Assembly (NCBI RefSeq): GCF_001435975.1
Contig: NZ_AYYR01000022.1
Coordinates: forward strand, 1 to 24,000
From: Secundilactobacillus collinoides DSM 20515 = JCM 1123
GTDB lineage: Bacteria > Bacillota > Bacilli > Lactobacillales > Lactobacillaceae
Reading direction: 5' to 3'
DNA: 24,000 bases
Part shown: piece after piece, positions 70 to 10,154 of the stretch
Layout of the letters: each line of letters begins with the position of its first letter
Numbering within the stretch: the stretch's first letter is position 1
Made by a program: the position numbers and the translations under genes
The notes under the pieces: generated by a model
The model's database searches: none
What the model saw: only the letters and a program-made list of their open reading frames with translations
Told to the model about the DNA's origin: nothing

Positions 70-187
70 TAATGAAAAAGAAAAATGATGATTTTATCTG
101 TACCATACACTAAAGATAGAACAAGAAATGCAGGGTGCCTGCAATACTTTTTACATTAAAAAAGTAATAATAGGTGAGGTTTTAAAG

Positions 188-511
188 ATGGAATATGAAG
201 AAGTTATTCAAGCGTTAGTTGATTTTAGAAACAAAAAGCAGTGGCAAGAATATCACACATTTCCTGCATTGGCGCGCGCTTTATCAGTCGAAGCGACAGA
301 GGTCAATCAATTGTTTTTATGGCAAGATAAAAGGCCTGACGAAGAACTATTACAAAATCAACAACTCGTACAAAATTTAAAGATGGAGTTGGCTGACACT
401 TTAACCTATGCATACTATATGTGTGAAAAATTAGGAGTGGAACCCAACGATGTCGTGACCGAAAAGCTGGAAATTAATAAAAAGAGACATTGGAAATTCG
501 ATAAAGAATGA
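188..511 (+). CDS. MazG-like / DCTPP1 (RS21-C6)-like all-alpha NTP pyrophosphohydrolase, 107 aa
   Basis: I chose the internal ATG at 188, preceded by GGTGAGG, over the ORF-track start at 128. The EXXE-x28-EXXD metal-binding signature is intact (EATE ... ELAD). The segment FRNKKQWQEYHTFPALARALSVEATEVNQLFLWQ resembles the DCTPP1 core (F..ER.W.QFH.PRNL.LAL.GEVGEL.ELFQWK). The size is typical of the family. Confidence 0.8.
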   Translation: MEYEEVIQALVDFRNKKQWQEYHTFPALARALSVEATEVNQLFLWQDKRPDEELLQNQQLVQNLKMELADTLTYAYYMCEKLGVEPNDVVTEKLEINKKRHWKFDKE

Positions 512-571
512 TAATGGATAATCTAACGAGACTCTTCTCTTAATAGTAACGTGGACAGGTGGCAAATCAGA

Positions 572-2326
572 ATGACAAGCATAAATCAACCAATAATTAA
601 AAAAATACCGTATGGGAAAGATTGTCTTAAAAAAATCAACGAGAAGAACAATCAGGCCGTCGAAACATACATCCTGAATTTTCCAACTGTATATATCGTG
701 AGCCAGAATACGACTAAAGCTGGAACAACAGCCGCCAAATATGAAGTGTATGTTGGAGAGACAAACGATATTAATCAAAGAACGGATCAGCATTTAAATA
801 CGGATGTGAAACCAAATAATTCTTGGGACAAATTTCTTAAAAACTCGAATAGCAATCTTTACATTATTGGTCATGATCACTTTAATAAGTCGCTAACCAT
901 GGATGTTGAGAATCGTTTAATGCTTTATTTAAGTAGTGTACCCAATGTTATAAAAGTAGATAATCGAAGAGAAAACGAGCAAAATCATTATTTTCCAGAA
1001 AAAGAAGCCTCACTTATATTTTCAAAAATTTGGGCGAAACTTCAGCAGGACAACAGCACCTTATTTCCGGTTGAATCAGTTATTAGAGATTCTGCAATTT
1101 TTAAGGCATCTCCATTTCATAAGCTAACAGATGAACAATTTCAGGCTCAGGGGAAAATAATAAACTGCATTCATAAAGCTATGCAGAATGAGACTGAAAA
1201 CCAGTTAATTCTGATCGAAGGAGCTGCAGGTACTGGTAAAACTGTGCTCTTGAGCACCATTTTCTATGCTGTGAGTCAAATTAAAAAGAATAATAGTCAC
1301 AACCAGACTGAATCAGTCTCAACTAGTCTTTTAGTCAATCAAAATGAACAGTTAAAGGTTTACAATGACATTGCTCAAAAACTCGGAATTGAAAAGAAAA
1401 AGGGAGAGGCTGTGATGAAGCCAGCCACTTTTATTCATAATTTTGAAAAAAAAGGTGAAGCGAAGTAACAAGCATTAGTGGACGTTGCACTTGTAGACGA
1501 AGCCCATCTACTATGGACACAAGGGACTCAGGGGTATAGCGGCGAAAACGAGCTGGCAGATATTCGGAAACATTCGAAGATTACATTAGCGATATTTGAT
1601 CCGCAACAAGTTTTGAGTAATAAAGGCTATATTGAATCAGAGGATTTTGAAAATGCTAGAGAAGAATCTAAGCGACAAAATAATTATATTACTCTAAAAA
1701 AGCAAATGCGTATTCAAGCATCTAAAGAGACTGTTGACTGGATAACAAATTTTGTCTATAAAGGAGAAGTAAGGCCATTCAAAAAAGACGAAATTTACAG
1801 TTTGAAAATATTTGATGATGCTGAAGCAATGCATCAAGCAATTAAAAATCAAAATACAGATTTTGAGAATAGCGGCCTATCCAGATTGGTAGCAACTTTT
1901 GATTGGGCATATACTGATGGGAAAAAGAATAATAACAGAGCTGATGGTAGATGGGTGGTAAACGCAGGAAACCTAACGTTACCTTGGAACAGCACAAAAG
2001 GGCAACTTCCTTGGGCTGAACGACCAGAAACAATTGATGAAATCGGATCAACGTTTACTATCCAGGGATTTGATCTTAATTATTGTGGGGTTATACTGGG
2101 ACCATCAGTTACATATCGGAAGGGTAAAGTTCAAATCATTTCCAAGAATAGCCAAGACAGTCATGCGACTGATAGAAGAATGTTAAAGTCGGGTGAATAC
2201 AAAGACGTCAGCAATGAACTATTATTGAACCAGTTGAATGTATTGATGACTAGGGGCGTGCATGGGCTATACATTTATGCGGTAGATGATGAGTTGAGAA
2301 AAGAATTGCATGCTCGTTGTGACTAA
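572..2326 (+). pseudogene. GIY-YIG nuclease domain + DUF2075-type P-loop NTPase/helicase-like protein, interrupted by one in-frame TAA (1466-1468)
   Basis: ORFs 551..1468 and 1478..2326 share a frame (1478-551=927, divisible by 3), separated only by TAA plus 3 sense codons (..KKGEAK*QALVDVALVDEAH..). N-terminal GIY-YIG-like motif: YIVSQ...YEVYVGETNDINQRTDQH. Walker A (GAAGTGKT) lies in the first half and Walker B/DEAH (LVDEAHLLW) at the start of the second. The C-terminal part is typical of DUF2075 (FTIQGFDLNYCGVILGP ... LNVLMTRGVHGLYIY). Likely start is ATG 572, preceded by AGGTGG. No usable RBS precedes GTG 1478. Confidence 0.8.
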
Positions 2327-2338
2327 GGAGTAGTTATT

Positions 2339-2770
2339 ATGAAACATCCAAAAAGTTATGACTCTGACAATTCAACTAGACAGCGAATGTCTAACGTACA
2401 TCTTAAGGGAGGCAAGGGGGAACAAATCTTAGCTAAAGCACTATGGCAAAACGGATACCGATATCGTAAGAACGACAAGTCATTGCCGGGTTCTCCAGAT
2501 ATTGCAGTTTTGAAATATCATCTTGCCATTTTTGTTGATGGTGAGTTTTGGCATGGGTATGACTGGGAAAATCGGAAAAAACGATTAAAAAGAAATAGAG
2601 ACTATTGGATCAAAAAAATAGAAGAAAACATGGCTCGGGATCAAAGAGACGATGCGTTATTGATTGAAAAGGGATGGCAACCAATTCATTTTTGGGAAAA
2701 AAAAGTTTTGAAAAATACTGATTATTGTGTTTCTCTCGTAGATTACTATGTAAGGTCGGAAAATCGTTGA
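2339..2770 (+). CDS. vsr: Very-short-patch repair endonuclease (T:G mismatch endonuclease), 143 aa
   Basis: Family hallmarks: RQRMSNVHLKGGKGEQILAKALWQNGYRYRKNDKSLPGSPDIAV...AIFVDGEFWHG. AAGGAG RBS at 2325-2330 lies 8 nt before the ATG. The gene starts 12 nt after the DUF2075 stop, so it is probably co-transcribed. Confidence 0.9.
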   Translation: MKHPKSYDSDNSTRQRMSNVHLKGGKGEQILAKALWQNGYRYRKNDKSLPGSPDIAVLKYHLAIFVDGEFWHGYDWENRKKRLKRNRDYWIKKIEENMARDQRDDALLIEKGWQPIHFWEKKVLKNTDYCVSLVDYYVRSENR

Positions 2771-2792
2771 ACTAGAGATGCAAAATTCAATA

Positions 2793-2801
2793 TGGTATAA
2801 T
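2793..2801 (+). promoter_or_regulatory. Possible upstream promoter (extended -10 TGgTATAAT) in the vsr-methylase spacer
   Basis: TGGTATAAT at 2793-2801. No convincing -35. It would form a tandem promoter with the one at 2840-2868. Confidence 0.3.
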
Positions 2802-2839
2802 TCGAACATACATTCGTCTAAACTATATCAAAGTAAAAG

Positions 2840-2868
2840 TTGATCAATTTTCATTTTTCTAGTATAAT
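2840..2868 (+). promoter_or_regulatory. Near-consensus sigma-A promoter for the methyltransferase gene
   Basis: TTGATC (2840-2845), a 17-nt spacer, then TATAAT (2863-2868). It sits ~35 nt upstream of the GTG start at 2904. Confidence 0.7.
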
Positions 2869-2903
2869 GGCAAAAGTAAGTATTTGGCGAGGAGAGAAAG
2901 TAA

Positions 2904-4166
2904 GTGAAAAAAAGAGTAGCTGAGTTATTCGCTGGTGTGGGCGGTTTTCGAGTTGGTATGGATAAACTCGATACTGGTTGGAATTTTGTATATGCTAATC
3001 AGTGGGAACCAGGTAGAAAAGCCCAATATGCTTTTGATAATTATGTAAAGCATTATGGTAAAAGTGAAAATAATACAAATGTAGATATCAATAAAGTTGA
3101 TAAAACAACAATTCCTGACATAGACTTATTGGTTGGGGGATTTCCTTGCCAAGACTATTCGGTTGCACATTCTGGAGCTAAGGGTATCGAAGGGAAAAAG
3201 GGTGTTTTATGGTGGGATATTCGTGACACGATTGAAGCAAAAAATCCACCTTTTGTATTACTCGAAAATGTTGATCGATTATTGTCATCTCCAGGGAAAA
3301 AACAGCGTGGACGCGATTTTGGTATGATTTTGTACACGCTTCACCAGCTAGGATATGACGCGCAGTGGCAGATGGTGAATGCTGCTGAATATGGATTCCC
3401 TCAAAGAAGAAGACGGGTCTTTATTGTTGCATACCGAAATGATACTAACTATGCTAAATCTATTAGTGATAAACGGTGCTTAAACGAGGCCTTAGTAAAA
3501 GATGGTATTATTAACAACACACTGAACATTGATCCTAACCTCACCCGTAATAAGGAAGCAAGGCTTGACGGTTTTATTGATATAGTAGATTTCTCAGATA
3601 ATTTTTCCTTCCACTTTGAAAATACCGGAATCACACGTGGAGATGATATTTTCAGTGCACACTATGAGCCTAAGTACGATGGCAATTATACGGTGTTAAA
3701 TGACATTGTTTTAGACCATGCTGACGATGAAAAACTGTATCTGGACGATGCTAAAACTAAGAAGTTTGAGTATCTTAAAGGTGCTAAAAAAGAAGAACGA
3801 ACTTCGAGCACAGGCTTTTCATATTACTATACCGAGGGCGGTATGTCCTTTCCTGACCCGCTGGATCGACCTGGACGGACAATGTTAACTTCAGAACATT
3901 CAGTGAATAGAAGCACCCACGTCGTTCGTGATAAAGAGAATAACAAACTTAGACTTTTAGATCCAATTGAAGCCGAACGATTACAAATGTTTCCAGATAA
4001 TTGGACAGAAGGAATGCCAAAAAGTTCAAGGTACTTCATGATGGGAAACGCTCTGGTAACCGGCGTCATAACAGAAATTGGTCGTAGTTTGGATAAAATA
4101 TTTGCAAATGAGCCTGACGACCTTACTCTAAATGAGACACTTAGTGCAAATCATGTGGCCCACTAA
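2904..4166 (+). CDS. DNA (cytosine-5)-methyltransferase, M.Sau3AI-like (predicted GATC -> GATm5C), 420 aa
   Basis: m5C-MTase motifs in canonical order: I FAGVGGF, IV GGFPCQDYS, VI ENV, VIII QRRRRVFIV, X GNALV. Long stretches match my recollection of M.Sau3AI (ANQWEP.RK, GKKGVLWW, ENVDRLL.SP..QRGRDF, TEGGMS, RTMLTSE.S.NRSTH, PIEAERL..FPDNWTEGMP). GTG start with a GAGGAG RBS. Confidence 0.9.
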   Translation: MKKRVAELFAGVGGFRVGMDKLDTGWNFVYANQWEPGRKAQYAFDNYVKHYGKSENNTNVDINKVDKTTIPDIDLLVGGFPCQDYSVAHSGAKGIEGKKGVLWWDIRDTIEAKNPPFVLLENVDRLLSSPGKKQRGRDFGMILYTLHQLGYDAQWQMVNAAEYGFPQRRRRVFIVAYRNDTNYAKSISDKRCLNEALVKDGIINNTLNIDPNLTRNKEARLDGFIDIVDFSDNFSFHFENTGITRGDDIFSAHYEPKYDGNYTVLNDIVLDHADDEKLYLDDAKTKKFEYLKGAKKEERTSSTGFSYYYTEGGMSFPDPLDRPGRTMLTSEHSVNRSTHVVRDKENNKLRLLDPIEAERLQMFPDNWTEGMPKSSRYFMMGNALVTGVITEIGRSLDKIFANEPDDLTLNETLSANHVAH

Positions 4167-4175
4167 ATTATATAT

Positions 4176-4225
4176 AAAAACTGTGATATTCGATTTTGCT
4201 GATTATTGAATATTACAGTTTTTTT
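4176..4225 (+). terminator. Rho-independent terminator after the methyltransferase gene
   Basis: An 11-bp stem (4181-4191 pairs with 4208-4218, one G:U), a 16-nt loop, then T7 at 4219-4225. An A-run precedes it. Confidence 0.8.
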
Positions 4226-4259
4226 GCACATTAGTATAGTTAGATAATGCTATAAACAA

Positions 4260-4289
4260 TTGAAATGTACCTGCTAAGTTAAGTATAAT
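4260..4289 (+). promoter_or_regulatory. Sigma-A promoter for the restriction endonuclease gene
   Basis: TTGAAA (4260-4265), an 18-nt spacer, then TATAAT (4284-4289). AGGGGG RBS lies just before the TTG start at 4314. Confidence 0.65.
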
Positions 4290-4313
4290 GACAATAACGC
4301 AGGGGGTATTGCA

Positions 4314-5786
4314 TTGAAATCAGATTATGATAGTAAAGAAAAAGTTCACAAACGAGCTGAGGAAATCTTGGGTATTCCTTTTGGTGAATTAGCAAAAGAT
4401 GTCAACTCAAAAAAGACCAAGAACAGTGTTGGAGATCTCTTTGAGTCATGGTTCGGTAAAGCCAGAGATTCCGCTAGCGAACCTGATTTAGGGGTGTCTG
4501 AATTGAAAGCAACACCATATATTAAACGTAAGGGTGGGCAGTATAGCGCTAAAGAAAGACTCGTTCTCAATATCATCAATTATCAGAACCTAGCTGATGA
4601 GGAATTTGAGACGAGTCATTTTTACCATAAAAACAAAGTTATTGAATTGGCATTTTATGAATATATTAAGGATAAACCACGATCTGAATGGACTTTTAGT
4701 GAAGTGGCTTTGTTTGAAATGGCGAAAAACCCTACAGATTACGCAATCATTCGAAACGATTGGGATAAGATTCAAAGATACGTTAAGGAGGGGCATGCCG
4801 AGAATCTAACGGAAAGTTTGACTGATTACCTGGCGGCTTGTACTAAGGGTGCTAACGCACAAAGTTTAAGGACTCAACCTTATTCGGATGTTAAGGCTAA
4901 GCAACGTGCCTTTTCTTTGAAGACAAGTTATATGACCCAATTACTCAGAGAATATATTCTTGGAGACAAAAAATCCGATTTTATCTTAAAGAACTCACGA
5001 GAGGCTGCAGACAAATCCTTGGCAGATGTTCTAATTGAAAAATTGTCACCATACTTTGGTCAAAACTCGATTGATATATGCACAGAGTTAGGCGTTAAAA
5101 TTAGGCCCGGTATTAAAAATTATAATAGTTTATTAATTCGCGCCATGCTTGGTTTTGACACTAGCAAAAAATCTGGGCTTGATAACATTTCTGAGTTAAA
5201 TAAGGCTTCCTACTTGATTAAAACTGTTCAATTTGATTATGCAGGTACAAACAGTGAGAGCATGTCTTTTCCGTCATTTAAGTTTAAGGATTTAGTTCAA
5301 GAACAGTGGAAAGATGAAGATAATAATCCATCTGCTAAATTGAATATTCTAATGTCTGAAAGTACATTTGTTTTTGCGATATTCCAGCATAGTTCCGTAG
5401 ATAATGAAGAGTCAGATAATGTGTTTAAGGGAATCAAATTCTATAAAATGCCTCAGGCCATTATTAATAATGAAATTTACTGTGTCTGGCAAGATACTAT
5501 TGACACATTAAACGAAGGCGTGAAGCTTTGGCGTGACGGCCGCGGAATTCGAAATAATTTTGTTAACGCGGGTGATCAACGTGTTATTCACGTTAGACCT
5601 CATGCAGGTTATGCTAGTTATATCGATAATGGGTACGCTAATGAATTACCTGTGCCTTCTAGGTGGTTGGGCGACGAAAAGGACAAACCGAGACAGTTTT
5701 CATCACAGTATATGACCAATCAATGCTTCTTTTTGAATAACAAATTTATTCGTGATATTGTTAGAGATTTGGTTCAGATTCATTAA
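4314..5786 (+). CDS. Type II restriction endonuclease, Sau3AI family (tandem MutH-like domains; predicted GATC), 490 aa
   Basis: Length matches Sau3AI (~489 aa). The N-terminal half matches my recollection of Sau3AI (SVGD.FE.WFGK..DS...PD, ELKATP, KERLVLNIINY, IELAFYEY, CTKGANA.SLR.QPYSD.KAKQRAFSLK). The C-terminal half also matches (ESMSF.FKF..L..E.W, FKGIKF..MP, NNFV, HVRPH). It is adjacent to an M.Sau3AI-like gene. Confidence 0.88.
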   Translation: MKSDYDSKEKVHKRAEEILGIPFGELAKDVNSKKTKNSVGDLFESWFGKARDSASEPDLGVSELKATPYIKRKGGQYSAKERLVLNIINYQNLADEEFETSHFYHKNKVIELAFYEYIKDKPRSEWTFSEVALFEMAKNPTDYAIIRNDWDKIQRYVKEGHAENLTESLTDYLAACTKGANAQSLRTQPYSDVKAKQRAFSLKTSYMTQLLREYILGDKKSDFILKNSREAADKSLADVLIEKLSPYFGQNSIDICTELGVKIRPGIKNYNSLLIRAMLGFDTSKKSGLDNISELNKASYLIKTVQFDYAGTNSESMSFPSFKFKDLVQEQWKDEDNNPSAKLNILMSESTFVFAIFQHSSVDNEESDNVFKGIKFYKMPQAIINNEIYCVWQDTIDTLNEGVKLWRDGRGIRNNFVNAGDQRVIHVRPHAGYASYIDNGYANELPVPSRWLGDEKDKPRQFSSQYMTNQCFFLNNKFIRDIVRDLVQIH

Positions 5787-6136
5787 TATACGTCTTTTTG
5801 GACAGGTATTAGTTAAAAATAAGAAAATCGCGACAAAAATTGTGTTGGTTTATAATCTTTTTTAGATACACATACTTAAATCATACTCAAAAAATGTATC
5901 TTATGATTTAAAAACATCTCTACCATTTAAAATCGGTTTCTGTCTTGATTTTTAGTGCATAGAAGAGAAAATATTCGGAAGTGTTGAATTGTTAAAAACA
6001 ATTAGATCAAATCCAATAAAATATACAAAAAGACCGAACAATATTATTGACTTAACTTTTTTTTAGATTGCAAATTGTACTGAAAACAAAGAATAATTGC
6101 ATACTAAAAAAGAAAACGCTTACTGGAGGGCTAATC

Positions 6137-7878
6137 TTGGTAGTAATTCCACCTAAAATGACTGATCATAATAAAATTGTAAATATGCGACGGCAATTGG
6201 CACAAATAGTTGCTAGTTACCATAATGATTATGATGTTTTGGCTGAAATTTTACAGAATGCGGTTGATTCAGTTAAACTGAGATTGGAAGAAAAAAGAAA
6301 GGGTATCAACCCAAAATATTAATTCAGTTTAATTCTGATAATGAAGAAATTAAAGTTACCGATAATGGGGTAGGAATGAATAGTGAACTACTTTCCGATG
6401 CAGTCCAGCTTTTTGAAACTGGTAAAAAGGAAGACGATAATTCAGTTGGGGAGAAGGGAGTTGGACTAACATTCTCAATATTTCAGAGTGATTTTGCTGA
6501 AATAGATAGTTTTGACGGGACAGAAAAATCCAGGCTTGTTGTGAAGAATGCAAGAAAATGGTCAAAAAGTACTACTGATGAATCATTAGACTTACCAATC
6601 GATACAGACACTGAAATTAAAAAGCGTGGGACCACGGTTATTTTAGGGCAATTAATGGCAGGGGATTTATTTAATTTAACCTTTAAGTAGTTGTAATTTT
6701 TAATTCGTACTAGAACTTCAATTGGTGATACGAAAAGAATGATGGGACCAAAAGGAAACCTCCCCAATGTACATGTAGAATTGACCTATATCAATAGTTA
6801 TCAGGTCAAAAATGCAATTTCAAAAGAAATTAAATTTGAATATTACTGGTTAGACGATATTAAAGAGCCCAATCCTAATTTGATTGTCAGTTTGGAGAAT
6901 TTTAAAAGAATTTTCAAAAAAGAAGGAACTAACCAACGAGACTATGAAAAAATGGCCTATTTAAAAAATCGGTACGTAACGGATAAAGGCCGTTTGACAA
7001 TTAACAATAAAAAGGTTGCGTATGTTGTCTATTTTGCTTCTTCAGCTGATAGTAATGAAAAACAATCAGAACAGGCAGATTTAATAAATTCAAAAGACCG
7101 TACAATAGTGAAGGTTGAACCTAATTATGTAAAAATTCAAAACGGCGTTACTTTGAGTGTAAAAGGAATGCCTACTGGAATAGAAATTAGTACAGATCAA
7201 CTCAAAGGTGCACTTGGTTACGCTCGCAGGATGTTTATGCTTATTGAAGATGCAGGTGTAAACTTTGATATCGGAAGAAAAACTATTTCGTCAGGTCCCA
7301 CTCTAAAACGATATAAAGAGGTAGCAAGCGATGAATATAGAAAGTATTTGGATAATGTAATGCCTTGGGTGAAGGATGAAAGAGCAAGAGTACCGCAGAA
7401 CGAAACCAAGGATGTTACATTTAATAAGCTCCGTGAGTGTCCAAAGATGATGTATGCTGAGAATACTGATTTTATAATAAAGCCAAGGCAAGAAGAATCG
7501 GTTACTGGTATCTTCTTTGAACAGCTAGGTAAAGGAAAATTTCCGGGAGTTGCAGTATATGAACATGGCTATGCAAATATCTATGATTTATATTTTGCTT
7601 TTCAAGATGGAGACAAAGTTATTGAATTTAAGCAAAGAATAGCAAGCTTTTTAAAGAATCTATCAGCTAATAATAAAAATTGGAATGAAATTGATTATCT
7701 TGTAATGTTTGAACTGAAAGATAAAGATAAACAGGATTTACAAAAAAAACATATAATTATTGAAAGTGTAAAGCCAACTATTAACAATCTACATGCAACG
7801 TATACGTTGTATCGTGGTAACGACATAAGAACGATACAATTAATCGAGTTGAAAAATATCATATCCATGAAAATATAA
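6137..7878 (+). pseudogene. GHKL (Bergerat-fold, MutL/MORC/HATPase_c_3-like) ATPase with a possible C-terminal PD-(D/E)xK-like module; disrupted by a -1 frameshift and two in-frame stops
   Basis: Three ORF fragments (6068..6322 in frame 2; 6376..6690 and 6739..7878 in frame 1). Motif I is EILQNAVDS in fragment 1. Reading frame 1 back from 6376 gives ..KKKGYQPKILIQFNSDNEEIKVTDNGVGM (motif II DNGVGM), so the frame switch falls in the A-rich run at 6288-6300, consistent with loss of one A. Motif III is GEKGVGLTF. In-frame TAG at 6688-6690 and TAA at 6694-6696. C-terminal pattern: EESVTG...IYD-x12-EFK. Likely start is TTG 6137 (GGAGGG RBS at 6125-6130) or ATG 6158. Confidence 0.75.
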
Positions 7879-7889
7879 AAAGTCCGGAT

Positions 7890-9056
7890 TTAGAAATCAT
7901 TTGATGAAGATAGGATATCTTTTGCAACGTATTGTCTGTGGTATTGAAGGTATGTTTGGTGGCCTTTAAGTTGCGCGAAAGTGCGTGAAGTATCTAAATG
8001 TAATATTTTTAAGTCTTTTTTTGTTAATAAATTGGACACACAAAGATGATTATGAGTGTCGAACGAAATTAGACCTTTATCAAAAAGTTTATCATGAATT
8101 GCGCAGAGCAAGAGCCCATTATTAGAATCGATTTTTTCTTGGTCATTAGAGTTAGCCCAAGGTTTAATATGACTTGCAATCAACAATTTAGAACAATCGA
8201 GTCCACAAACAAGGCACCTATGCTGTTTTTGCAAAAGAGTATGTCGAAATTGGCTTTGAGTTATGCGTTCTTTTGCTTTGACTGTGGCTTCATTTTGACC
8301 ACCGGACAACGAAAAAATCTTATTCATAATTTTTTTATTAGAACTAATAGGTTTTAAATGAATGAAATTTGACCAACTTTGCGGAACGATGCTGTTTTTG
8401 GCAGATTTTCCCTCTTTTAGATGGGTAAGCCATTCTTTTTTAATTGAGGTAGTTTGATCAATGTAAAATTTTGCCTCATAATTTGGTATATTGTTTTTTT
8501 CTCTAATGGATTTCAAACCATTGGGTATTGGGTAAGCGAGTCCCATGTATTCAACACGATTATCTGCAAACAACTTAAAATATAAAATTGGAAATGCTTG
8601 GGTTGACTGTGCAAAATTTTCAGAAAATATTTCGTCCAAATAGAAATTACCCTTTTTGGGGGTATTAAAAATATTTTGGGAAGCTTTGTTATCACCATGA
8701 TAAGTTAACAAATGATTTCCAGAGTCAAAGTCGTCTGACCAAATATTTGCTTTAGCTTTTTCTGCGGATGTAATGACTAGAAATGCGTGTTCCGTGCTGT
8801 TGCTTCGCTTTGATTGGGGCGCTAGGTTAACCATTCTAAAGCCACCGTTAGTGCCAGTTGAAGTGTGTAAATTGTTTTTTTTCCTGTCAAGTTTATTCTC
8901 GGAAATGAAATTCTTCGACATTTTTGTTGTTGTTAATGCGTGAAGCACGTCGCTATTTTTTAAGTTGATTCCGGCATAAATAGTCTCCGGAATTAAATCG
9001 CAGCTCTGTAGCTCGGATGTTGATAATTCAAGTTTTTTTAATGTAGTCAAAATCAT
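7890..9056 (-). CDS. HNH (HNH_2-type) endonuclease with an SRA/PUA-like N-terminal domain; candidate Type IV modification-dependent restriction enzyme, 388 aa
   Basis: C-terminal HNH motif: CLVCGLDCSKLLIASHIKPWANSNDQEKIDSNNGLLLCAIHDKLFDKGLISFD. The N-terminal segment AFLVITSAEK...WSDDFDSGNHLLTYHGDNK...FPILYFKLF..NRVEYMGLAYPI follows the SRA/YDG pattern (vLs.ggYeDD.D.G..l.YtG.GG ... Y.G.Y.v). AAGGTGG RBS lies upstream of the ATG at 9056. The HNH call is strong; the SRA call is tentative. Confidence 0.75.
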   Translation of the reverse strand: MILTTLKKLELSTSELQSCDLIPETIYAGINLKNSDVLHALTTTKMSKNFISENKLDRKKNNLHTSTGTNGGFRMVNLAPQSKRSNSTEHAFLVITSAEKAKANIWSDDFDSGNHLLTYHGDNKASQNIFNTPKKGNFYLDEIFSENFAQSTQAFPILYFKLFADNRVEYMGLAYPIPNGLKSIREKNNIPNYEAKFYIDQTTSIKKEWLTHLKEGKSAKNSIVPQSWSNFIHLKPISSNKKIMNKIFSLSGGQNEATVKAKERITQSQFRHTLLQKQHRCLVCGLDCSKLLIASHIKPWANSNDQEKIDSNNGLLLCAIHDKLFDKGLISFDTHNHLCVSNLLTKKDLKILHLDTSRTFAQLKGHQTYLQYHRQYVAKDILSSSNDF

Positions 9057-9245
9057 TAGCCACCTTCTATACTTATTAATCTACAATACAATAAGTTATG
9101 GCCTTAACGTAAGGTGAAAAATAATTATGTATAAATAAAAATATTCAATTTTTAAGGCCGAGCTTGTAACGATTTAATGGATTAAGAATGATTATTTTCC
9201 ACATCTGCTTTTTATAATGGAACTACAAAGGTGGGAGGATACCAT

Positions 9246-10154
9246 ATGAATCTGAATCAAATGCTTTACCTCACGGAGCTTGGGAAAACAAAAACCATCT
9301 CTCAGGCCGCTAAGAATTTGAATATCTCACAAGCCGGTCTGAGTCAGTCCCTAGATAAGTTGGAGGAAGAACTCGGCTTGCGATTGTTTAACCGGACCCG
9401 CAGTGGGATAACGATTACTGAGGCTGGTAAGCAGGTCGTCGCGCACGCCAAGGCAATCGAAAATCAACTTGGCCTGATTCGCCAGTATTCAACTCAACAG
9501 CGAACGGTCGTAGATCCGCCGTTACGGTTTGGGGTGATGAACGAGGTACCCAATTCGCTGTTAAACTGGTTGCTGCAGTTTCAGGATCAACATTCTCAAT
9601 TTAAAGCGTACCTCCAAGAAGCGAGCAGCATTCAGATTATTAAAGGTGTAAAAACCGGTGATTACGATGCCGGATTGATTGCCATTAACAAGGCTCATTT
9701 TGCACTACTGGAAGAACTCGATTTTACTGAAGTCGGGCAAGGACAGTTCAAATTGTACATGACGCCTAATCACTACTTAGCGGACCATCCGGACCCGATC
9801 CCCATCTCACTTATCCGCGAGCAGGAGTTTGCCTTATTCATCGACGACTACATCTCGGAATATGTGGGTAAGATCGAACAAAGATATGGCGCCTTGAACA
9901 TTATTATGCAGTCAACTTCATTCCGCATTGTGCTTGAAACGATGAAGAAGTTTCAGGCCGTATCCATCATCCGCAACTCGCAGCTGCATAATCGGCTGTA
10001 TGATTTTGAAAAACAAGCGATGGTCGAACACAATCTCGATATGTTTGATTTTAAGGATGACCAAGCATTTCGATACGGCATCATTCGGCGACCGGGGAAA
10101 CAGCTGACCAACTTGCAGACGCAATTTGTGACCGGTATTGGTCGCATTCAATAG
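9246..10154 (+). CDS. LysR-family transcriptional regulator, 302 aa
   Basis: N-terminal wHTH: MNLNQMLYLTELGKTKTISQAAKNLNISQAGLSQSLDKLEEELGLRLFNRTRSGITITEAG. ATG 9246 is preferred over GTG 9231 because GGGAGG then serves as the RBS. Confidence 0.9.
   Translation: MNLNQMLYLTELGKTKTISQAAKNLNISQAGLSQSLDKLEEELGLRLFNRTRSGITITEAGKQVVAHAKAIENQLGLIRQYSTQQRTVVDPPLRFGVMNEVPNSLLNWLLQFQDQHSQFKAYLQEASSIQIIKGVKTGDYDAGLIAINKAHFALLEELDFTEVGQGQFKLYMTPNHYLADHPDPIPISLIREQEFALFIDDYISEYVGKIEQRYGALNIIMQSTSFRIVLETMKKFQAVSIIRNSQLHNRLYDFEKQAMVEHNLDMFDFKDDQAFRYGIIRRPGKQLTNLQTQFVTGIGRIQ

Follow-up and report, generated by a model that had tools for sequence, protein, structure and literature searches.

The region from position 6137 to 7878 of the window, i.e. 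of the 24,000 nucleotides of Secundilactobacillus collinoides DSM 20515 (contig NZ_AYYR01000022.1, positions 1 to 24,000) which were analysed here, is probably a recently inactivated gene for a paraMORC3-type single-protein ATP-dependent nuclease, most likely a lone defence effector that became a neighbour of the other genes of its defence island by co-localisation. The widespread family to which it belongs normally occurs alone and, judged by analogy, is probably directed against phages. The features of the region are compiled in Table 1.

Table 1. Position, strand and basis of assignment of the features identified in the window.
Feature	Position	Strand	Evidence or remark
Vsr very-short-patch repair endonuclease, Dcm accessory	2339..2770	+	Pfam Vsr E 3e-24
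C5 cytosine methyltransferase (Dcm), cognate methyltransferase of the Sau3AI module	2904..4166	+	Pfam DNA_methylase E 2e-65
Sau3AI-family type II REase, intact	4314..5786	+	NF040973; Pfam MutH E 3e-20; PADLOC REase_II E 8e-129
paraMORC3-type GHKL ATPase-nuclease pseudogene, ~580 codons	6137..7878	+	three-frame translations, tblastn, family search
GHKL (Bergerat) ATPase domain	6236..6690	+	Pfam HATPase_c_3 E 3.1e-7, HATPase_c E 3.7e-7
GHKL motif I, ExxxN	6245-6259	+	
Frameshift, one-base indel in the A-rich run GAAGAAAAAAGAAAGGG	6292..6304	+	tblastn with P0002
GHKL motif II, DNGVGM	6361-6378	+	
GHKL motif III, GEKGVG	6448-6465	+	
GHKL motif IV, GT of RGTTV		+	columns invariant in the family
Two nonsense codons, TAG 6688-6690 and TAA 6694-6696, one Leu codon between them	6688..6696	+	
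Middle (transducer) domain, Hsp90-middle/S5-like	6697..7410	+	AF2 model of homologue P0012
PD-(D/E)xK-like nuclease domain, 155 aa	7411..7875	+	AF2 model, invariant residues, weak fold matches
Q-E	7489-7494	+	helix 1 of the C-terminal domain
D	7585-7587	+	start of strand 2 of the C-terminal domain
E-x-K	7624-7632	+	strand 3 of the C-terminal domain
AspBHI_N (SRA-like) and HNH_2 modification-dependent endonuclease, intact	7890..9056	-	Pfam, PADLOC

Anatomy of the pseudogene

As stated in the preliminary description of this DNA, a gene of about 580 codons follows the Sau3AI-like gene on the plus strand, and it is indeed broken, namely by one frameshift and two nonsense codons. The intact homologues P0002-P0005 matched the region over the full length with 36-41% identity in tblastn searches, and the best full-length homologues reached E 1e-128. 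Translation would start at TTG 6137, which is preceded by GGAGGG at 6125-6130, or alternatively at ATG 6158, and this frame A closes at TAA 6320-6322. Two HSPs obtained with P0002 lie in different frames and overlap exactly at the site of the frameshift; the homologue has EEKKNGYQ at this site, against EEKRKG and KKKGYQ in the two frames of the window. The two nonsense codons lie in the second frame and occupy the positions of EQL(V/K)F in the intact homologues, and the TAG codon replaces Gln177, which is nearly invariant in the ATPase-nuclease family. The last open stretch (6739-7878) is identical (100%) to P0001, a 378-aa 'hypothetical protein' of Secundilactobacillus collinoides.

Of the family positions that are catalytic or invariant, 20 were checked, and the repaired pseudogene sequence keeps all of them; the inactivation is therefore regarded as recent. 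Together, the match to HATPase_c_3, the full-length homologues and these retained positions put the homology signal of the pseudogene far beyond chance. Upstream, an AT-rich gap of ~350 bp separates the pseudogene from the Sau3AI-family gene, and thus the two genes are not translationally coupled.

ATPase and middle domains

The former assignment as a GHKL ATPase was borne out, since HATPase_c_3 exceeds its Pfam cut-off with the window gene, as does HATPase_c, and the Bergerat-fold motifs quoted before are present (EILQNAVDS 6245-6271; DNGVGM; GEKGVGLTF 6448-6474). In about 70 loci, and likewise in the repaired gene of the window, the residues E35, N39, D69, G71, G73, G98, K100, G103 and T158 do not vary. 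By similarity, the GHKL module stands nearest to those of Hsp90/HtpG, sacsin and Topo VI-B. MutL was tried as an identity of the ATPase and rejected (NF000951 equivalog, 12.9 bits vs a cut-off of 391, covering residues 55-93 only), and neither MutL_C nor DNA_mis_repair matched the window ATPase in Pfam.

In the members of the family, Pfam finds the GHKL domain only. Modelled with AF2, homologue P0012 (pLDDT 88) aligns with the N-terminal and middle domains of Hsp90, TRAP1 and HtpG across 410-440 columns (E between 1e-15 and 1e-13), and the Hsp90 middle domain is S5-domain-2-like. The middle domain of the family bears the invariant motifs KGMPTGI and FDIGRK, and the R/K there would be the gamma-phosphate sensor.

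C-terminal nuclease-like domain

The E...D...ExK pattern that had been read from the C-terminus is present as Q-E, D and E-x-K (Table 1), and the domain is predicted to adopt a PD-(D/E)xK-type fold with this pattern conserved, in line with the earlier proposal of a nuclease core. The AF2 model (pLDDT 94.5) shows alpha-beta-beta-beta-alpha-beta topology, and QE, YD and E-F-K are invariant among the C-terminal domains of the family members. The best fold matches obtained with Foldseek are weak but consistent and comprise Hjc, VRR-NUC, phage nucleases and REases; none of the matches to solved or annotated nucleases was significant (best E 0.14 in the PDB and 0.023 in the viral library). Neither the domain nor its profile matched any sequence in Pfam, PADLOC or the PDB, although E-values up to 10 were allowed. 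Since no structural match is significant, the assignment as nuclease rests on the motif, the topology and the consistent weak matches.

Distribution and neighbourhood of the family

The ATPase-nuclease family (~570 aa) comprises 344 representatives at E≤1e-30, counted as 50%-identity clusters, and 301 matches were obtained in a word-indexed family search. The proteins are tripartite: the GHKL ATPase is followed by the Hsp90-like middle domain and then by a domain of 155 aa with alpha-beta-beta-beta-alpha-beta topology and E-D-ExK, and both catalytic centres are strictly conserved. The family occurs sporadically in Bacillota, Bacteroidota, Pseudomonadota, Acidobacteriota, Actinomycetota, Planctomycetota, Cyanobacteria and archaea, a distribution which resembles that of horizontally transferred genes. 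The closest relatives of the window gene are carried alone, by plasmids, integrative elements and contigs with flanking IS elements: one in L. paracasei is flanked by IS elements, one sits in an element with integrase, Rep and FtsK, one adjoins a phage-type amidase, and one is located on the L. plantarum plasmid pLL441-5 (9 kb). Within the Lactobacillales clade to which the window gene belongs, no methyltransferase adjoins the members examined.

The neighbour survey covered about 80 loci, including a few near-duplicates, with crude ORF calling. A Sau3AI gene was found near a family member in 1 of 80 loci, and conversely none of 80 Sau3AI loci contained a family member and one contained a distant GHKL-nuclease; in the same Sau3AI loci, Dcm occurred in 75/80 and Vsr in 40/80. 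When 793 neighbouring ORFs were clustered by BLAST, no cluster occurred in more than 5 of 81 loci, and among 146 immediate neighbours scanned with Pfam 185 families were recognised, none of them in more than four proteins. Within these loci the family has no conserved partner; according to PADLOC, its neighbours are varied defence and methyltransferase genes.

In the window, the Sau3AI-family REase reached 454 bits with NF040973 (cut-off 300), and the Dcm is 52-53% identical to the Sau3AI-adjacent Dcms of two other loci, L033 and L147. Vsr, which had been reported nearby, was verified by Pfam; its presence is explained by Dcm. Vsr accompanies 40 of the 80 Sau3AI-Dcm loci. The stretch 2339-5786, with Vsr, the C5 methyltransferase and the two-domain MutH-like REase, is typical of Sau3AI-type R-M systems and holds nothing unusual. 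Vsr, Dcm and Sau3AI make up an ordinary R-M module that is sufficient by itself, and the ATPase lies outside the conserved module (0 of 80 loci). Downstream, the gene with AspBHI_N and HNH_2 domains (Pfam RE_AspBHI_N E 6e-22, HNH_2 E 2e-13; PADLOC HNH and mREase_II) is convergent with the pseudogene and ends 11 bp from its stop codon; due to this orientation the two do not form one operon. A GIY-YIG-DUF2075 gene in the same low-GC island is broken as well.

Relationship to known systems

The reference to the paraMORC work of the Aravind group in the preliminary description proved right. The window family matches paraMORC3 of Iyer et al. 2008 by architecture and description. These proteins combine GHKL, S5 and an RE-fold domain with E-D-ExK; one subset stands alone and another adjoins Dcm, Vsr and RE-fold genes, and paraMORCs do not possess the MORC-specific GhXhhpXXRhl motif of the S5 domain (PMC2292703). 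The window family shares the N-terminal GHKL domain, whose ATP motifs are intact, the S5-type middle domain (AF2 alignment to Hsp90-type folds), the additional C-terminal globular domain with E-D-ExK and the wide sporadic spread with a stand-alone and a Dcm/Vsr/RE-fold-linked subset. However, the authors stress Proteobacteria and Bacteroidetes, whereas the clade of the window belongs to the Lactobacillales. Furthermore, profile searches with the C-terminal domain of paraMORC3 recover RecB-family nucleases (PMC2292703), but such matches were not reproduced with the window family's C-terminal domain in Pfam, PADLOC and PDB sequences.

The same architecture is known from VcSduA (Shedu type I-D), which consists of a GHKL ATPase and a DUF4263 nuclease and guards against phages (PMC12137116; bioRxiv 10.1101/2023.08.10.552793). 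Phage protection is lost in its E27A (ATPase) and K557A (nuclease) mutants, and the authors equate the GHKL-middle-nuclease architecture with paraMORC3 (PMC12137116). Like VcSduA, the members of the window family are single polypeptides with GHKL motifs I-IV, an Hsp90/MORC-like middle domain and a C-terminal PD-(D/E)xK domain, and they are encoded by stand-alone genes in defence islands. The catalytic Glu and Lys residues are about 448 residues apart in the window family vs 530 in VcSduA. DUF4263 (PF14082) was unmatched at E≤10 by the window protein, 38 members, 10 distant relatives and isolated C-terminal domains; no PADLOC Shedu model matched the family, and no Shedu chain was among the top structural matches of the C-terminal domain. 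Because the DUF4263 and PADLOC Shedu models miss the window family, the likeness to VcSduA and Shedu is one of architecture only.

For the ATPase and middle domains, Hsp90/HtpG is the best match in sequence and structure. In contrast to Hsp90/HtpG, the window family is mobile and patchily distributed, and it possesses the nuclease domain in place of the C-terminal dimerisation domain.

Alternative explanations

MutL of E. coli is the activator of MutH and also stimulates Vsr; in the window, too, genes for a GHKL ATPase, for a GATC nuclease of the MutH fold and for Vsr stand together. The preliminary description took these for a mismatch-repair-like trio, in which the ATPase would act like MutL, as a third component for the loading, licensing or regulation of the Sau3AI REase and/or Vsr. 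Beside the location of the ATPase gene, directly downstream of Vsr-Dcm-Sau3AI on the same strand, two further loci are in favour of this reading: in L033, Sau3AI, Dcm and an ATPase with only 29% identity to that of the window are packed operon-like with a 13-bp gap between Dcm and the ATPase, and in the Sau3AI locus L147 a distant protein with GHKL and E-D-ExK is encoded 2 kb downstream. Nevertheless, such a role is very unlikely. The co-occurrence is not conserved among the loci surveyed; intact homologues are not enriched beside Sau3AI/MutH genes, a comparison which had been fixed beforehand as a test of the trio, and the linkage in either direction (including the one distant relative) is not above that of several other defence genes. 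The nearest relatives of the window gene are all solitary, and the gap of 350 bp separates the genes in the window. The ATPase differs from MutL by the lack of the MutL C-terminal domain, its GHKL domain is nearer to Hsp90/Topo VI-B, and with a conserved nuclease of its own it needs no external one. The R-M genes have stayed intact beside an ATPase gene with three lesions, so the module is evidently maintained without the ATPase. Moreover, the C-terminal MutH-like domain of Sau3AI reportedly activates the enzyme in cis (bioRxiv 10.64898/2026.04.21.719898), and Sau3AI thus needs no MutL-like activator in trans. What stands of the role formerly proposed is the fallback, an independent ATPase-nuclease effector.

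It is unlikely, too, that the ATPase-nuclease is tied to the C5 methyltransferase (and Vsr) rather than to the REase, as a second, ATP-dependent restriction arm from which the host is spared by 5mC. Dcm is the most frequent close neighbour and is adjacent in L033, L052, L061, L077 and the window, with Vsr immediately upstream in L061 and L077, and Dcm-Vsr-paraMORC operons have been reported (PMC2292703). On the other hand, ~90% of the loci are without Dcm within 10 kb, the Dcm-linked members are the most divergent (24-29% identity to the window gene), methyltransferases do not adjoin the window's Lactobacillales clade members, and the window Dcm is the standard Sau3AI partner (75/80 loci; 52% identical to other Sau3AI-linked Dcms). 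A modification-dependent system formed with the SRA-HNH and/or the DUF2075 helicase-like protein, into which the Sau3AI module was inserted later, is highly improbable: HNH or SRA-HNH genes adjoin family members in L005, L006, L028, L033 and the window, DUF2075 lies next to them in L005 (with a gap of 69 bp), L069 and L074, the MazG-DUF2075 pair of the window recurs beside a Companilactobacillus homologue, and HNH genes adjoin paraMORC1 (Iyer et al., PMC2292703), but each association occurs in just 3-5 of 80 loci with varying order and orientation, the window HNH gene is convergent with the pseudogene, and no repeats or scars at the R-M module mark an insertion. Least probable of all is a housekeeping function outside defence, as a paralogue of the Hsp90/HtpG chaperones or a DNA-repair factor. 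The N-terminal two thirds do match HtpG/Hsp90 best, and stand-alone paraMORC3 proteins may have roles other than R-M (Iyer et al., PMC2292703). The sporadic, apparently horizontal distribution, the carriage of relatives by a plasmid, an integrative element and contigs with flanking IS elements, the varied R-M and defence genes as neighbours, the strictly conserved nuclease motif and the proven anti-phage function of VcSduA with the same architecture all argue against it, as does the dispensability of the gene in this strain, where it is a pseudogene.

Proposed mode of action

The preferred reading thus remains that of a single-protein, ATP-dependent nuclease, and both the analogy to VcSduA and the island context point to a defence role of the family. 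We infer that its proteins dimerise and that their nuclease activity is gated by ATP. In intact relatives, the GHKL domains would dimerise upon ATP binding, and the middle domains would form a clamp or cavity engaging DNA or perhaps a client derived from the phage. The C-terminal nuclease, gated by the ATPase cycle, would then cut invading DNA. The S. collinoides pseudogene would be a remnant of such an effector, situated in a low-GC defence island beside the Vsr-Dcm-Sau3AI module, an SRA-HNH type IV enzyme and the broken GIY-YIG-DUF2075 gene.

In the three cases in which a GHKL-nuclease occurs with Dcm/Sau3AI (the window, L033 and L147), the ATPases come from three separate lineages. It is conceivable, but quite unlikely, that Dcm-based modules, Sau3AI R-M systems among them, have repeatedly taken up GHKL-nucleases of the paraMORC3 type as a second, ATP-dependent restriction arm which shares the self-protection by 5mC. 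If this were true, the window would represent a decayed two-nuclease R-M system.

Organization of the low-GC island

The gene investigated here is located in a low-GC island, which extends from position 1 to about 9100 of the window and shows a G+C content of 31–39% in comparison to 42–51% in the remaining window. The step in G+C content at about 9100 is sharp and lies just upstream of a gene for a LysR-type regulator (9231–10154), while the left end of the island is situated beyond the window. Neither an integrase, a tRNA nor flanking repeats were seen within the window. Repeats that could be scars of an insertion were sought on both sides of the R-M module, with matches at chance level only, and a promoter and terminator scan of the region 5600–9300 gave nothing interpretable.

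Genes of the low-GC island
Gene	Position	Strand	Remark
MazG-like gene	128–511	+	
GIY-YIG and DUF2075/SLFN-g3-helicase gene	551–2326	+	broken by in-frame stop
Vsr	2339–2770	+	
C5 methyltransferase	2904–4166	+	
Sau3AI-family restriction endonuclease	4314–5786	+	NF040973, 454 bits
GHKL ATPase-nuclease pseudogene (this study)	6137–7878	+	
AspBHI_N/SRA-like and HNH_2 endonuclease	7890–9056	-	

In the island, the genes of the R-M module are intact, and so is the HNH gene. The latter encodes a modification-dependent endonuclease, is oriented tail-to-tail with the ATPase pseudogene with 11 bp in between, and thus occurs together with a 5mC methyltransferase gene in one island; a set of AspBHI-like mREase, Sau3AI, Dcm and ATPase is also present in locus L033 of the survey described below. 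The GIY-YIG-DUF2075 gene is a single gene interrupted solely by an in-frame TAA (1466–1468). It aligns end to end with an intact 586-aa homologue of Companilactobacillus (45% identity) and is thus a second pseudogene of the island. The pair which it forms with the MazG-like gene (128–2326) recurs intact in Companilactobacillus (L069:11921–14003), where it is located beside an ATPase gene of the family on the opposite strand.

Anatomy and decay of the ATPase-nuclease gene

According to three-frame translation and to tblastn searches in which the closest intact homologues served as queries, the region contains one gene with a length of about 580 codons. It starts with TTG at 6137, seven bases downstream of GGAGGG; an alternative ATG is found at 6158. 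Because the start is located about 350 bp past the stop codon of the Sau3AI gene, both genes are not translationally coupled. The homology switches frame within an A-rich run (6292–6304), where the homologue reads EEKKNGYQ. In the second frame, the nonsense codons TAG (6688–6690) and TAA (6694–6696) occur at positions at which intact relatives possess EQL(V/K)F, with the TAG in place of Gln177, which is nearly invariant. The preliminary description had called the gene broken, which was confirmed by this one frameshift and the two nonsense codons. Since the three lesions are independent, a sequencing slip is excluded and the gene is a real pseudogene, which as judged from its sequence is inactive in this strain. 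Phase variation at the A-run was considered and rejected, as the run comprises only about six A and two nonsense codons follow further downstream. The 378-aa product of the remaining ORF (6739–7878) has an identical counterpart among the NCBI proteins of Secundilactobacillus collinoides. After repair in silico, all of the invariant ATPase and nuclease positions checked are kept (20/20), which argues for a recent inactivation.

Domain composition of the protein and its family

In the Pfam analysis, the GHKL domain alone was detected (HATPase_c_3, E 3e-7; HATPase_c, E 4e-7). The best NCBIfam models were of the sacsin type and of the HSP90 family, and the MutL equivalog reached 12.9 bits versus a cut-off of 391. 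A protein search yielded 301 relatives, nearly all with a length of 560–600 aa and annotated as 'ATP-binding protein', and 344 cluster representatives were retrieved at E ≤ 1e-30 when the profile was searched exhaustively. No match was obtained when a phage collection was searched with the family. The PADLOC match to Tiamat (TmtA) was limited to the GHKL region of a model with 1,655 positions, and membership in this system was therefore rejected.

An alignment of 38 family members (A1) showed invariant residues in motif I (E35, N39, D42), motif II (D69, G71, G73), motif III (G98, K100, G103) and motif IV (T158). The middle domain contains the invariant stretches KGMPTGI and D-x-G-R-K, and the last 160 residues contain Q436-E437, Y467-D468, E481 (at least 90%), K483, K498 and D515. 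In an AF2 model of the family member P0012 (pLDDT 88), 410–440 columns aligned to the N-terminal and middle domains of Hsp90, TRAP1 and HtpG (E 1e-15 to 1e-13).

The C-terminal 155 residues encoded in the window were modeled with a pLDDT of 94.5 as an alpha-beta-beta-beta-alpha-beta fold, in which E28 opens helix 1, D59 is located just before strand 2, and strand 3 carries E72-x-K74. In the model, this placement is the canonical arrangement of PD-(D/E)xK nucleases. Comparison of the fold with the PDB gave Hjc and VRR_NUC (E 0.14–0.19), and a viral library gave VRR-NUC, 'nuclease', 'restriction endonuclease', Holliday junction resolvase and Mrr (best E 0.023); none of these matches is individually significant, and almost all named ones belong to the PD-(D/E)xK superfamily. 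This domain was detected by none of the sequence models of Pfam, PADLOC and the PDB, and zero matches at E ≤ 10 resulted when the C-terminal alignment was used as a profile against the PDB. The earlier assignment of a GHKL ATPase with a nuclease-like C-terminal core was thus right, and the motifs quoted for it are all present.

In six relatives of 600–630 aa (P0268, P0272, P0278, P0292, P0316 and P0334), the match to the family profile ends at about position 515–535; their tail after the ExK core seems to be different, and none of them shows a DUF4263 match. Very distant actinobacterial relatives (L080, L082 and L085; 24% identity) have kept all ATPase residues and lack the QE/D/ExK nuclease residues.

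Linkage to the Sau3AI restriction-modification module

It had been proposed that the MutH-fold endonuclease, the ATPase as a MutL analogue and Vsr form a mismatch-repair-like trio, and a recurrent linkage of Sau3AI-family enzymes to this ATPase family had been named as a check. The trio was not supported by neighborhood surveys in either direction. The forward survey comprised 78 family loci, with one genome per species, plus loci from exact look-ups; after removal of exact duplicates, 80 loci besides the window remained. Only in one of these (L033) was a Sau3AI homologue present near the ATPase. No neighbor cluster recurred in more than five loci (793 ORFs from a distance of up to 6 kb, clustered by BLAST), and among the 146 immediate neighbors, which represent 185 Pfam families, no family occurred in more than four proteins. 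MutH was absent from the 25 most frequent of these families, and PADLOC assigned mixed methyltransferase and defense matches to the same neighbors, none above four. Sau3AI neighbors were no more common than HNH, DUF2075 or type I R-M neighbors.

For the reverse survey, 80 Sau3AI-family loci from metagenomes were used (median 11.7 kb of sequence per locus). A Dcm homologue was found in 75 and a Vsr homologue in 40 of these loci, whereas the family HMM matched two ORFs, both weakly. The first encodes a GHKL-only protein and lies 7 kb away from the Sau3AI gene. The second, situated in L147 at 2 kb downstream of Sau3AI, codes for a distantly related GHKL protein of 594 aa, which possesses a QE/D/EFK motif of its own. 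Vsr, Dcm and Sau3AI therefore represent a standard module, to which the ATPase does not belong. A MutL-like partner is also mechanistically unneeded, because Sau3AI is described as an autoinhibited enzyme whose own C-terminal MutH-like domain activates it in cis, unlike MutH, which requires MutL in trans (2026 preprint, bioRxiv 10.64898/2026.04.21.719898).

The linkage to Sau3AI of about 1% in each direction is what co-localization in defense islands would give. With about 80 loci per survey, a weak real association may nevertheless exist, most plausibly through Dcm and less so through the MutH-like nuclease: a GHKL-nuclease is located downstream of a Dcm-Sau3AI pair in the window, in L033 and in L147, with ATPases from three lineages, and in L033 alone the ATPase gene appears to belong to the same operon as the genes of a Sau3AI R-M system. 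In this Lachnospiraceae MAG (L033:4898–11474), genes for an mREase (418 aa), Sau3AI, Dcm, the family ATPase and an uncharacterized protein of 232 aa are tightly packed on the same strand, with gaps of 13 bp before the ATPase gene and 16 bp before the last gene. On the metagenomic contig L147 (5364–11903) the order is Dcm, Sau3AI, a 382-aa gene of no assigned function and the 594-aa GHKL protein, whose C-terminus is covered by no Pfam model. The alternative given in the preliminary description, an independent ATPase-nuclease effector, proved to be the right one, as no conserved partner occurs in the 80 family loci and the closest relatives are solitary.

Genomic context of intact family members

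The nearest intact relatives (36–42% identity) are located on IS-flanked contigs of L. paracasei, on an element that also encodes an integrase, Rep and an FtsK-like protein, and on a contig with a phage-type amidase gene just upstream. The 9-kb plasmid pLL441-5 of L. plantarum carries another member (32% identity to P0012), beside which an HTH regulator and a YafQ/DinJ toxin-antitoxin pair are encoded. Further members were found in defense islands of varied composition: in Sporosarcina, the neighbors are a type I R-M system as well as DUF2075 and SRA-HNH genes, and in Priestia they are GmrSD_N, AAA_23 and HNH_2 genes. In the Sporosarcina locus (L005), the DUF2075 gene lies 69 bp upstream of the ATPase gene. 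In pLL441-5 (NZ_CP114879.1, L170), which originates from a cheese isolate, the intact member (1622–3358) is the largest gene of the plasmid.

Relationship to paraMORC3 and Shedu and putative mechanism

Proteins of the paraMORC3 kind were described computationally in 2008 and are defined by a GHKL and an S5 domain, by an RE-fold domain at the C-terminus that contains E-D-ExK, and by a sporadic distribution (Iyer, Abhiman and Aravind, PMC2292703). Every feature that could be compared matches the family, the likeness being one of described features and not of the authors' sequences. The Shedu-type protein VcSduA also consists of a GHKL ATPase and a C-terminal PD-(D/E)xK nuclease, DUF4263; its protection against phages was shown in 2025 and is abolished in the E27A and K557A mutants (Adams et al., PMC12137116). 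The family shares this architecture, whereas neither its members nor their distant relatives match DUF4263 or the PADLOC Shedu models; Pfam scans of the relatives of about 600 aa and of the L147 protein likewise revealed no DUF4263. Because the architecture agrees with VcSduA and the sequence does not, the family is filed as paraMORC3-type with a Shedu-like architecture, and membership in Shedu is not demonstrated.

One polypeptide holds two strictly conserved predicted catalytic centers, has no obligatory partner, and is carried on mobile elements and in defense islands. Presumably, the GHKL domains dimerize, driven by ATP, and the middle domains form a clamp, which would engage DNA in the manner of MORC and Topo VI-B. 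Alternatively, the clamp might engage a client protein as in Hsp90, a role on which Gu et al. speculated (bioRxiv 10.1101/2023.08.10.552793). The ATP cycle would then control the C-terminal nuclease, which would degrade invading DNA.

Significance

For the locus itself these results matter little, as the gene is dead, its kind has been known since 2008 and a protein of the same architecture was shown to act against phages in 2025; it is a new, decayed member of an already known kind. The attractive but unsupported interpretation as a MutH-MutL-Vsr analogue is dropped from the leads. Since sequence searches with Pfam, PADLOC and the PDB do not detect the nuclease domain, current defense-finder tools will miss such genes. 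Both catalytic centers are conserved almost perfectly across phyla, and for this reason intact members, such as WP_343577040 of L. paracasei and WP_070084863 on pLL441-5, the latter plasmid being a convenient natural construct for functional testing, are good candidates for a predicted Shedu-like, ATP-gated nuclease.
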